A DNA stretch of 32,000 nucleotides from Zymomonas mobilis subsp. mobilis ATCC 10988 (GTDB lineage Bacteria > Pseudomonadota > Alphaproteobacteria > Sphingomonadales > Sphingomonadaceae), in the NCBI RefSeq assembly GCF_000175255.2, contig NC_017262.1, positions 1,260,001 through 1,292,000 of the forward strand, in the 5' to 3' direction. The notes under the pieces are model-generated. The model ran no database searches, had not been told where the DNA came from, and saw nothing but the letters and a program-made list of their open reading frames with translations. Positions 6,682 to 9,696 of this stretch are shown one piece after another. Numbering within the stretch: the stretch's first letter is position 1; each line of letters begins with the position of its first letter. The translations under genes were made by a program, and so were the position numbers.

Positions 6682-6772
6682 TGTTTAACAGTAGATTTAA
6701 TGAATTGTTGTTTATGACGGCCTTTTCTAGCCGTTACCACCAAGTGCCCATCAAAATAGGTCAGACAGAAAC

Positions 6773-6792
6773 CCTCTTCCCGAAGGAAGAGG
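6773..6792. terminator. Hairpin between convergent hrpB and the glycosyltransferase gene
   Basis: CCTCTTCC - CGAA - GGAAGAGG is a perfect 8-bp stem. On the minus strand it is followed by GTTTCTGT. Confidence 0.5.
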
Positions 6793-6806
6793 ACACAAAA
6801 TAAGAT

Positions 6807-7486
6807 TTAGTCGATAATAATATCGCAAACACTTTGTGGATGGCCTTTGGTTGTTCCCCAGACGTGATCGGCAAAGACATGCCCCTGTCCTGTATAGCGC
6901 GCACCTGTATTATGGACAGGCGTAAAATAATGGCTTGGCCACAATGTATAGTTATATTGCGGATTTTCTTGGTGGATTTCTGTTACCAATCTGGGACCTG
7001 TGATATGGCATGGCCAACCATCAGTAATAGATTCTCGATTGTGAATACGCTCTATCAGCTTTGCCATAAATTCTTGCTGCGGCGCAGCAGCCATCACATT
7101 ATTGCCAATGAGTCCGGGACGCATCTGCTCATGTTCCCAACCTAAACAGATATCACTATCAAACAGCCAATCTTCTAGAGGACGGATACAGTAGCAGTCG
7201 GCATCTACATAAAAACCACCTTCAATAAACAGGATTTCATAGCGCATCATATCGCTAACCCCGTCTAACCGCCCGCATTCTAACAGAGTTTTTATATGTT
7301 TGGCATTATACCAATTATGATTGGCTAGAATGTCGTTGCCCCAGACCTTTACTTCCCAATCAGGATTTTGATCAACCCAGCTATTGATAAAATGATTAGG
7401 ACGTTTGCTCTCATCTCCAACCCAAATGACATGAATAACTTTGGGGATAGAAATCCCCCCCTATTAAATCCGTATTTGTCAACCAT
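6807..7486 (-). pseudogene. DXD-motif glycosyltransferase (Gly_transf_sug/OCH1-like family), reading frame broken at a G7 tract near the 5' end
   Basis: The frame of the 147-aa track ORF stays open upstream to 7459 (GGISIPKVIHVIWVGDESKRPNHFINSWVDQNPDWEVKVWGND...GGFYVDADCYCIRPLEDW). It has no ATG/GTG/TTG before 7250. The only plausible start, ATG 7486 (MVDKYGFNRGG), is in another frame and joins only if the G run 7455-7461 were G8 or G5. Confidence 0.6.
7455..7461 (-). repeat. Homopolymer G7 (C7 on the + strand) at codons 10-11 of the glycosyltransferase
   Basis: Counted directly: aaat-ccccccc-tatt on the + strand. Confidence 0.9.
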
Positions 7487-7590
7487 AATTTTTCTTTTTA
7501 TTTATAATTAATACAATTAAAGGTTATATATTTTGTGAATATTATTCAATATGCATAAAAATAAAATTATAAATGATAGTATATCTTCTC

Positions 7591-8729
7591 TTATTTTATA
7601 GATAGCGCATGACGGCGAATAAGAATGGTCGAGAAAATAGTGGCAATAGCCAATAAACAGGATGTGTAGGCGATCAGTCTTGGCCAGCCGCCAGATGTCC
7701 AGAATACGCCACCCAAAGAACCGAAAATGCTAGAACCCATATAATAGCATAAAAGGTAAAGCGATGTCGCATGGCCTTTATTTTGGCGCGCTAGCTGCCC
7801 GACCCAACCACTGGCGACAGAATGGATAGTGAAGAATCCGGTGGTGAAGATAAGAATGCCACAAACCATCAAAAGTAGATGGTTGCTCAGTGTCAACCAC
7901 ATACCGGAAAGCATAATAGCAATACCGGCAATAAGAACAGGCCCTCGGCCTATCCTGTCTGACCATGAACCGGCGGCAGGGGAAGCCATCATCCCCGAAA
8001 TATAAGACAGAAAGATAAAGCTGATTTGCGAAGATGACAGCGAGAAGGGCGGTAATACCAAACGGAAATCAATAAAATTGAAAATTGTGATAAAGCTACC
8101 AACCGCAAGCCCTCCAATGCCGAAAAGCAAAAACATATCGGGGCGGGTGATGTGCTGTGACCATGCTTTGGCATGATATTTCACATCAAAACGCGTTCTT
8201 TTGATAAAGTTTTTGGAAGTGGGCAGACATAATCCAAAAATGATAGCTGCCAGCAGGTCAACAGTTCCAAGAATTCTAAGCGCCATTTGCCAGCTTGTGA
8301 ATTCAGTCATAATACCTACGGCAACACGGCCAAACATACCACCGAAAGCTGTTCCACCAACATAAATGCCCATGGCATAGCCCAAATTCTTGGGATGTAT
8401 TTCTTCCGATAGATACGCCATGGCGACAGCAGGAACCCCGCCAAGGACGAATCCCTCACAAGCGCGCGCAATCAGAAAGACATTCCATGACGGTAAAAAG
8501 GCCGCAAAAATATTCATGAAAGAGGCTGAAGCCATCGAAAAGAACATAATGCCTTTTCGCCCCAAACTTTCAGCCGTTGCTCCTGAACAGAAGATAGAAA
8601 CGGCAAGAAAACCGGTTGTCAGCGAAATTGCAAAAGAACTCTCTGTAACGCTTACATGGAAATAACGGGTTAATTCAGGCAGAATAGGCTGAACACAATA
8701 TAAAAGAGAAAAGGTAATGAAGCCGACTA
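7591..8729 (-). pseudogene. YnfM-family MFS transporter, 3' portion, separated from its 5' end by an IS insertion
   Basis: 12-TM-type ORF. LVGFITFSLLYCVQPILPEL matches the remembered E. coli YnfM motif ALLYCVQPILPVL. The first 9 codons of the track ORF (MVTFLCQQN) are IS inverted-repeat sequence, not gene. Confidence 0.8.
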
Positions 8730-9505
8730 GGTTTTGTTGACAAAGGAAGGTAACCACAATTTTACGGCCGCGAGATGAAGGAAGGCGAGAAAAGATTTTC
8801 TGGTTTTGTCATAACGTGTGGCAATGCGCCTGAACCGCTTCAACTTATTGAACATCCGCTCAATACAATGACGATCTTTGTAGTGCTGGAGATTATAAGG
8901 AATAGGCTTTTTTCGATTGGAACGAGGCGGGATAACAGGAAGGATGCCTCGAAAAAGCTGTTTTTCGCGTAACCTATCGCTATCATATCCTTTATCCGCG
9001 AGAAAACAGTGGGGTGTTGTCACAGGGATATCTATCAAGCTATCAGCGCCAGAATAATCAGAGACCTCACCACCGGTTAGTGCGAAAGCTAGAGGGCGGC
9101 CTTGACCATCGGAACGGGCGTGGATCTTGCTCGTAAAGCCTCCGCAGCTTTGACCAAAGCCTTCCTTATGCGTCCCCCTTTTGCGCCAGCCGCTTGGCTG
9201 TGGGCGCGAATAATCGTGCTATCTATCATATGTTGCCAGTCATCTGTCAGGCCAAGGTCAACCAGGGTTTCAAGAAGAGCGTCCCACACACCCTGTTCTG
9301 CCCACCTACGAAACCGAACATAGACCGAATTCCATTTCCCATAACGTTCATGCATATCTCGCCACGGGCAGCCTGTTCGAAGCACATAAAGCATACCATT
9401 GAGAAATAACCGATTACTTTTGGCGGGACGCACGCAGCGGCCTCGTTCGCTTGGAAGAAGACCCTGTATTATCTCCCACTCCGCGTCCGTCAGATCTCCT
9501 CGCAT
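8727..9505 (-). CDS. IS5/IS427-type transposase OrfAB (programmed -1 frameshift)
   Basis: orfA runs 9505..9089 (MRGDLTDAEWEIIQGLLP...CPWRDM...IDSTIIRAH). The -1 frame continues as GQSCGGFTSKIHARSDGQGRPLAFALTGGEVSDY...LADKGYDSD...YKDRHCIERMFNKLKRFRRIATRYDK. The frames overlap at GCAAAAGGGGG (about 9174-9185). Confidence 0.8.
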
Positions 9506-9579
9506 CTCTATCTACCCTACAAAACTTGTCCTCAAGTTATCTCTAAAAATCTTAAATTATACCCTTTGTCAACAGAACC
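8730..9579 (-). mobile_element. IS5-family insertion sequence (IS427-group-like), copy 1, ~850 bp
   Basis: The terminal inverted repeats are GGTTTTGTTGACAAAGG (8730->) and GGTTCTGTTGACAAAGG (9579<-). The element is flanked by CTAG on both sides, so the duplication is either TA or CTAG and the ends are ambiguous by 1 nt. It carries a two-ORF frameshifted transposase. Confidence 0.85.
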
Positions 9580-9696
9580 TAGAAACAAGGCAAAACTGGT
9601 TACCAAATAATCTTTACTGCCCCGTTCTGTCCAAATTTTGCTTTCTTCTTTATGAAAAGGCGTTTTATTCGCTTGATGGCTATCGATGCTGCCCAT
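9580..9696 (-). pseudogene. 5' fragment (38 codons) of the IS-disrupted YnfM-family MFS gene
   Basis: ATG at 9696 reads MGSIDSHQANKTPFHKEESKIWTERGSKDYLVTSFALF up to the IS. Removing the IS and one target copy joins it in frame to LVGFITFSLLYCVQ. Confidence 0.75.

Follow-up and report, generated by a model that had tools for sequence, protein, structure and literature searches.

A poly-G tract of variable length in an orphan GT32 glycosyltransferase gene of Zymomonas mobilis: a probable contingency-type switch, OFF in strain ATCC 10988

The 32,000-nucleotide stretch of Zymomonas mobilis subsp. mobilis ATCC 10988 analysed here (contig NC_017262.1, positions 1,260,001 to 1,292,000; hereafter the window, whose own numbering is used throughout) carries on its minus strand a glycosyltransferase gene of family GT32 with a run of G residues close to its 5' end. 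The run has seven G (G7) in the window and separates the start codon from the catalytic frame. We consider it rather probable, from comparison of DNA and protein sequences, that the window holds the OFF allele of a contingency-type, slippage-prone translational switch acting on this orphan glycosyltransferase. Reading of the tract across assemblies shows natural changes in its length that recur in an otherwise intact gene, and 72 contigs encode the intact protein that results from eight G (G8).

In the proposed mechanism, slipped-strand mispairing at replication would add or remove one G in the poly-G tract at codons 9-11. With G8 (also G5 and G11) the conserved ATG would be fused to the catalytic domain and the gene would be ON. 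With G7 or G10 the catalytic frame, as read from the sequence, has TGA, TAA and TAG upstream, which would turn the gene OFF. With G9 (also G6) the frame is open from the TTG at 7482-7480 alone, a possible weak ON state. Switching would then vary the cell surface via glycan modification. All the sequence- and population-level marks of a contingency locus were found: a 5' tract that sets the frame, length polymorphism between strains (with the exception of protein P0093, see below) and retention of the tract above codon expectation. The length variation is known from comparison between strains; reversible switching within a culture is a prediction.

The tract and the reading frames around it

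The elements that define the predicted switch are the following.

7461-7455, minus strand (C7 on the plus strand): the variable poly-G tract, with seven G in the window; in the intact protein it codes for Arg-Gly-Gly at residues 9-11
6807..7486, minus strand: gene of a GT32 glycosyltransferase (DXD, GT-A fold), out of frame in this strain (conceptual translation, Pfam, AlphaFold)
7486-7484, minus strand: ATG start codon, predicted to be in use when the tract is G8 (ON), from leader conservation
7482-7480, minus strand: TTG that begins 4 nt after the ATG and shares the frame of the catalytic domain at G9 (or G6)
7463-7461, minus strand: TAG closing the catalytic frame upstream at G7; its final base is the first G of the tract
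7349-7486, minus strand: out-of-frame open reading frame (ORF) of 45 residues from the ATG in the G7 state, starting MVDKYGFNRGGFLSPK (ORF list)
6807-7250, minus strand: 147-residue ORF from the first ATG/GTG/TTG of the catalytic frame (ATG 7250)

The minus strand reads AAAAATT ATG GTT GAC AAA TAC GGA TTT AAT AGG GGG GGA TTT CTA across the start codon and the tract. A first-pass annotation, made from the letters of the window alone, had located the G7 run at 7461-7455, the ATG at 7486, the TAG at 7463-7461, the next start codon at 7250 and an out-of-frame run-out of about 45 codons, and each of them was found at exactly that position. It had also proposed that either G8 or G5 would restore a protein of 226 residues. 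Conceptual translation gives 226 residues on addition of one G; deletion of two gives 225, and G5 was never seen. The description of the ATG as the only start codon goes too far, since at G9 the TTG at 7482-7480 opens the catalytic frame (protein P0097).

The catalytic frame (ISIPKVIHVIWVGDE...YVDADCYC...) has no ATG, GTG or TTG between the TAG at 7463-7461 and the ATG at 7250. It is open over 215 codons in the window allele, the tract being its sole lesion. The 147-residue ORF left at G7 starts 79 residues into the intact protein; the N-terminal strand with the conserved IPKxIHxIW motif is lost, and its product should be inactive. Two G7/C7 runs are found in the window, compared with 4.2 +/- 2.7 in dinucleotide-preserving shuffles. 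A G7 run is thus within chance when taken alone, and its significance is drawn from the comparative data rather than from the run itself. Note that the other G7 run, at 896-902 on the plus strand, is in frame (GAA GGG GGG GCA, ...LLEGGAEARP...) in the middle of an intact 275-residue ORF (413-1240).

Tract length within and between the two subspecies

The N-terminus that the first-pass annotation predicted for the intact protein was recovered by protein search. Protein P0001 (226 residues, starting MVDKYGFNRGGISIPKVIHVIW) is encoded on 66 contigs and equals the G8 reading save for one V/I exchange near the carboxyl terminus, while its one-residue variant P0086 accounts for 6 contigs. The DNA of two genomes that encode P0001 (L001; L002, which is CP021053) has G8 and is otherwise near-identical to the window, the proteins of the window and G8 alleles differing by one conservative V/I substitution. 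The tract was read in the DNA of the window and of 11 other subsp. mobilis assemblies, with the following distribution.

G7: window, L004, L005, L006, L015, L016, L017, L019
G8: L001, L002
G9: L007, L008

As had been anticipated, tract length differs between related genomes, with three lengths in subsp. mobilis (G7, G8, G9) and two in subsp. pomaceae (G9, G10). The three lengths of subsp. mobilis are spread over at least four single-nucleotide polymorphism (SNP) backgrounds. A single G is the sole difference in 3,444 bp between L015 (G7) and L001/L002 (G8), and L016, also G7, belongs to a background 43 differences away. An alignment of eight sequences (3,402 columns, 93 of them with SNPs) contains no coding indel other than the tract and no further multi-state site. 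Counted by contig, about 72 are ON (G8), 15 are out of frame and 2 are G9; these counts are inflated by repeat sequencing of the same strains, and the out-of-frame contigs whose DNA was fetched are G7. This length is found in environmental metagenome assemblies too, and not in laboratory strains alone.

The first-pass annotation had left room for a sequencing or assembly error at a tract that is truly G8. Homopolymers are indeed classic error sites on some platforms, and the genome record of the window may derive from one of these. However, the same G7 is present in L019 (GCA_006715985.1), which shares the insertion sequence (IS) element found next to the gene (see below) and equals the window over 2,939 bp save for one T; in L004 (Logan assembly, SRR3925454), which has the IS junction and the haplotype of the window; and in L006 (Logan assembly, SRR9435042), which has its haplotype. 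G7 also appears in at least four further runs on other backgrounds. Error is thereby effectively excluded, and we regard it as highly improbable. Contigs that span the tract do not break there. In the SRR262/263 run series, the source of G7 contigs of subsp. mobilis, the G9 tract of subsp. pomaceae came out the same on 10 contigs, each from a different run, which argues that these data resolve such homopolymers consistently. Note that the T missing from L019 belongs to a T-run at ~7557-7561 in the intergenic spacer (T4 in L019, T5 in the window and in all other strains; TAATTTTATTTTTATG), and the difference could stem from misassembly of one record or mark a further run prone to slippage, here in the presumed promoter.

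The orthologue of subsp. pomaceae, P0088 (230 residues, MADKYGFNDMMGGGLSIPK...), has the same neighbours, sucD and hrpB, and carries the tract at the same position. It is G9, in frame and ON in environmental contigs (L009-L014, L026-L029), and G10, out of frame and OFF in the type strain ATCC 29192 (CP002865, L018), whose annotated products are truncated and whose catalytic frame is fully open despite G10. A 221-residue pomaceae product, P0087, proved to be only another start call on the same G9 sequence. G7 runs also occur in the pomaceae sucD and hrpB genes (L018 708 and 3625; L009 753 and 3673) and have the same length in both sequences; they are a small internal control for G10 in L018 versus G9 in L009, with the caveat that selection would purge frameshifts in these genes.

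The mobilis and pomaceae orthologues are separated by saturated synonymous sites (dS 2.4) with a dN/dS of 0.044, which argues that the gene was functional all along. The run persists although the sequence on either side of it has diverged between the two and includes a 3-codon indel beside the tract. GGG makes up 17% of the Gly codons in the window, and random synonymous recoding yields a G/C run of at least 8 in 0.7% of trials for mobilis and of at least 9 in 2.9% for pomaceae. By these comparisons the tract was already present before mobilis and pomaceae separated and has been kept since, in a gene that is otherwise intact and under purifying selection. The paralogue P0003 (232 residues, 67% identical; L020-L022 4001-4699), encoded beside a TonB-dependent receptor gene and thiC, shares the ...GFN... 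leader and has AGCAAAAAGAGA at the tract position, with no homopolymer. Subsp. pomaceae has its own copy of the paralogue, P0002 (225 residues, MVDKYGYNTKKISIPK).

The main competing explanation is that the gene, dispensable in some settings such as laboratory culture, was lately inactivated at a mutational hot spot; the G tract would be its weakest point and G7 a fixed young pseudogene with neither an adaptive nor a reversible role. It is possible, though not likely, and several observations speak for it and weigh against a working switch. All four datasets of the window's haplotype are G7, as would be expected of a slow switch and of a fixed loss alike. The type strains of both subspecies, long kept in culture collections, are OFF (ATCC 10988-like, from the annotation of P0092; ATCC 29192, G10), a state that could reflect relaxed selection in culture. 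One strain encodes P0093 (77 residues), in which a frameshift after ...CYCIRPL is a second lesion, and OFF alleles can accordingly go on to become true pseudogenes. The major facilitator superfamily (MFS) transporter gene directly upstream is disrupted in the same strain by an IS element inserted ~30 codons into it.

~8735-9605, minus strand: IS5-family element (DUF4096 + DDE_Tnp_1); transposase ORFs at 9089-9505 and 8727-9038

The two transposase ORFs, which overlap in different frames, form a single 259-residue product in the annotation of L019. The transporter, of 417 residues when intact in IS-free strains, is reduced to a 54-residue N-terminal fragment (9532-9696) and a 388-residue remainder (7591-8757). 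Two adjacent genes are inactive in this strain, and local decay in a long-cultured strain is possible. Further points against a switch are that G7-G8 is at the short end of the tracts that vary in phase in mismatch-repair-proficient bacteria, that a consensus sigma-70 scan of the 104-bp A+T-rich spacer upstream of the gene returned no promoter site, and that there is no glycan locus around the gene, whose surface-glycan role has to be inferred.

A young pseudogene leaves unexplained why a costly tract was kept in place across saturated synonymous divergence, and why it stands far above the codon-usage expectation in both lineages. Nor does it account for the recurrence of G7 in environmental assemblies and on several backgrounds, one of them shared over 3.4 kb with a genome that has G8, or for a window allele without other lesions. 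With regard to the fresh pseudogene that the first-pass annotation had listed, simple decay is disfavoured by a single lesion in an otherwise intact frame of 215 open codons, by the one V/I difference and by the dN/dS of 0.044. The phase-variation-like switch that the annotation had listed beside the pseudogene is supported by the variation in tract length together with the conservation of the gene.

Start codons, enzyme family and gene neighbourhood

The leader M[VA]DKYGFN is kept in the pomaceae orthologue P0088 and in the pomaceae paralogue P0002, and two of the three differences between the mobilis and pomaceae leaders are synonymous. This conservation at the protein level, in orthologue and paralogue, speaks for genuine initiation at the ATG. 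On the G9 contigs L007 and L008 the gene caller started P0097 (225 residues, MTNTDLIGGGISIPK...) at the TTG at 7482-7480, and this product may be a second, weaker ON state. We put forward only tentatively a selectively maintained multi-state switch, with G8 fully ON, G9 weakly ON and G7 and G10 OFF, that would have been kept since the mobilis/pomaceae split as bet-hedging against phages or changing sugar-rich niches and not against host immunity.

Two further codons downstream of the tract bear on where translation might begin.

7454-7452, minus strand: ATT codon directly 3' of the tract, start of the annotated 215-residue G7 products
7448-7446, minus strand: ATC codon 6 nt past the G-run, a candidate non-canonical start

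The proteins deposited in databases for this one gene (P0089-P0096) are of at least seven kinds, with 215, 214, 193, 175, 160, 147 and 77 residues. In the 90% identity cluster the subsp. mobilis products measure 226, 225, 215, 193, 147 and 77 residues, the output of gene callers faced with differing tract lengths. Those of 215 residues, P0092 (ATCC 10988, AEH62925.1/WP_014500862.1) and P0095, are annotated from the ATT and begin MSIPK. The ATT abuts the G-run with zero spacer and is probably an annotation device rather than a real start, and the deposited products of 215, 193, 175, 160 and 147 residues are probably artefacts of annotation pipelines that rescued frameshifted OFF alleles by calling starts that are internal or non-canonical. 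The exact 45-residue out-of-frame peptide, the 225-residue G5 product and the G11 product are absent from the protein collection.

These records nevertheless raise the question of whether the G7 allele is still expressed, either from the ATT or the ATC with the G-run as a Shine-Dalgarno-like element, or by a -1 slip of the ribosome or of transcription at G GGG GGA, in which case the tract would modulate expression instead of turning it off. GenBank and RefSeq do annotate the 215-residue product from ATT (P0092, P0095), in most homologues only one or two codons precede IPK, pairing of the G-run with the anti-Shine-Dalgarno sequence is conceivable with the ATC 6 nt after it, and G GGG GGA has the formal pattern X XXY YYZ of a heptamer. 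Yet no spacer separates the ATT from the G-run, and ATT and ATC are very weak initiators in Escherichia coli. The conserved MVDKYGFN leader favours the ATG as real start, the RNA downstream of the tract folds no more stably than shuffled sequence (z = -0.2), and the annotated starts vary from record to record (215, 193, 175, 160 and 147 residues), as expected of pipeline rescue. Expression of the G7 allele by either route is possible only as a low-level leak, and as the explanation of the tract it is quite unlikely. A programmed ribosomal frameshift site was considered and rejected: the heptamer is formally slippery, but it is followed by no structure (z -0.2) and most genomes are in frame with G8.

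The conceptual G8 product matches PF04488 (Gly_transf_sug) with an E-value of 5.5e-11 and 43.5 bits for a cut-off of 23. It also matches PF12919 (26.5 bits, cut-off 23.6) and the start of the TcdA/TcdB glycosyltransferase domain, and the NCBI name of the intact protein is "glycosyltransferase family 32 protein". In an alignment of 43 sequences, D95-A96-D97 of the DXD motif does not vary, nor do H19 and W22, and conservation reaches at least 90% for I14, P15 and K28; all of these residues are retained in the catalytic frame of the window. The AlphaFold2 model (mean predicted local distance difference test score, pLDDT, 93.1; predicted template modelling score 0.89) is confident from about residue 11 on. 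Its Foldseek matches in the PDB are YeGT, PaTox, SetA and Och1, with E-values from 1e-10 to 1e-7. The product belongs to GT32/PF04488, has a GT-A fold and groups with the retaining enzymes YeGT, PaTox, SetA and fungal Och1. Residues 1-10 of the model are disordered (mean pLDDT 49), strand beta-1 spans residues 17-21 (IPKVIHVIW), and the majority of homologues begin M[RK]IPK, one or two codons ahead of IPK and without a leader. The low pLDDT of residues 1-10 and the leaderless homologues place the tract in a dispensable N-terminal leader.

The nearest homologues outside Zymomonas, from Enterobacterales, are 49-51% identical and are encoded directly downstream of a GT25-like gene. In Cedecea neteri (L023/L024 4900-8645) and Pantoea eucrina (L025 7321-8645) the GT25-like and GT32 genes form a conserved two-gene cassette with overlapping stop and start codons. 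The Cedecea cassette lies between fliJ and flgN in a flagellar cluster with GT2 and FliB-like genes, a neighbourhood that suggests flagellin glycosylation; that of Pantoea eucrina adjoins parC. A 473-residue ORF adjoining the Cedecea cassette has no Pfam match. To judge from the family and from these neighbourhoods, which fit a cassette modifying a surface glycan or a flagellin glycan, the most likely role of the Zymomonas enzyme is sugar transfer to a glycan of the cell surface, be it lipopolysaccharide or lipooligosaccharide (LOS), exopolysaccharide or a glycoprotein such as flagellin. The sole match in the collection of species-representative genomes, searched with a tract-agnostic DNA pattern and with a protein seed, was an unrelated Rhodomicrobium homologue (34% identical), with Zymomonas itself recovered by neither search, and the DNA pattern had no match in the JGI metagenomes.

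The gene is a monocistronic orphan between the MFS transporter gene on one side and hrpB on the other, flanked by the following elements.

7487-7590, minus strand: intergenic spacer from the MFS stop codon to the ATG, 104 bp, 86.5% A+T; presumed promoter region
6771..6794, minus strand: terminator-like hairpin with a 10-bp stem, GTCCTCTTCC-TTCG-GGAAGAGGGT, 13 nt past the stop codon, between the convergent glycosyltransferase and hrpB genes

The spacer bears out the first-pass description of about 100 bp of very A+T-rich DNA upstream of the gene. A promoter of its own would lie in this spacer at 7487-7590, as for a monocistronic gene. Inspection by eye of the 25 nt preceding the ATG (TTAATTATAAATAAAAAGAAAAATT) found no Shine-Dalgarno-like GGAG.

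Known phase-variable loci and biological meaning

A close formal parallel is offered by Neisseria lgtA, lgtC, lgtD and lgtG, phase-variable LOS glycosyltransferase genes with poly-G or poly-C tracts usually of 8-17 residues. They share with the Zymomonas gene a G/C tract at the 5' end of a glycosyltransferase coding sequence, a frame toggled by one unit, alleles that are otherwise intact and length differences between strains. The Neisseria genes, however, are LOS loci of other glycosyltransferase families with measured switching rates and LOS phenotypes, whereas the gene studied here is an orphan GT32 known from its sequence, in a free-living bacterium of sugary saps and fermentations. In Haemophilus influenzae lic2A and lic1 the repeats lie downstream of several starts in different frames, and expression is strong, weak or off accordingly. 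The Zymomonas gene likewise has a potential start in two of its three frames (ATG at G8, TTG at G9), so that a three-level switch is formally possible. The Haemophilus repeats are tetranucleotides and their alternative starts were verified experimentally, whereas here the repeat is a homopolymer and the TTG is a gene-caller prediction on two contigs. A short homopolymer of seven C is the basis of a phase variant of Mycobacterium tuberculosis glpK.

Contingency genes are also represented by Campylobacter jejuni wlaN, cgtA and the flagellin-glycosylation maf genes (poly-G) and by Helicobacter pylori futA and futB (poly-C). As in Zymomonas, G/C tracts (~8-11 in those species) are found in genes for surface glycans or flagellar glycosylation and have standing length variation. 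These bacteria have no classical mismatch repair and carry dozens of such tracts per species; the contingency loci of C. jejuni have been described (PMC3025981). In M. tuberculosis, for which ESX-1 homopolymer tracts are also reported (PMC11898584), short G/C homopolymers (7-9) work as reversible frameshift switches in a species that is not one of the classical mucosal pathogens. Mycobacteria have no MutS/MutL repair, and their switches act on genes of metabolism or secretion.

The first-pass annotation knew of no such case in this kind of alphaproteobacterium. This does not hold for the class, since Bartonella has contingency loci with mononucleotide simple sequence repeats (SSRs), for example in the adhesin gene badE (PMC11466379). 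For Zymomonas, the literature search found no paper in the library covered that connects the genus with phase variation or with this gene. The Bartonella study also describes conserved coding mononucleotide SSRs with ON and OFF forms among natural isolates and argues from codon randomisation, as done here. It differs in concerning an adhesin of a host-restricted pathogen with switching seen in experimental evolution (PMC11466379), whereas the Zymomonas gene encodes a glycosyltransferase of a non-pathogen. Lin and Kussell described an enrichment of SSRs at the N-terminus as a signature of tuned phase variation (PMC3315296).

If the tract truly switches, Z. mobilis, an industrial producer of ethanol for which phase variation is not known, would have at least one cell-surface contingency locus, and contingency loci would reach beyond host-adapted pathogens. 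The commonly sequenced G8 strains would be ON, while the two type strains (ATCC 10988-like and ATCC 29192) would be OFF. Such a switch could explain differences between strains or batches in phage sensitivity, flocculation, biofilm formation and antigenicity.

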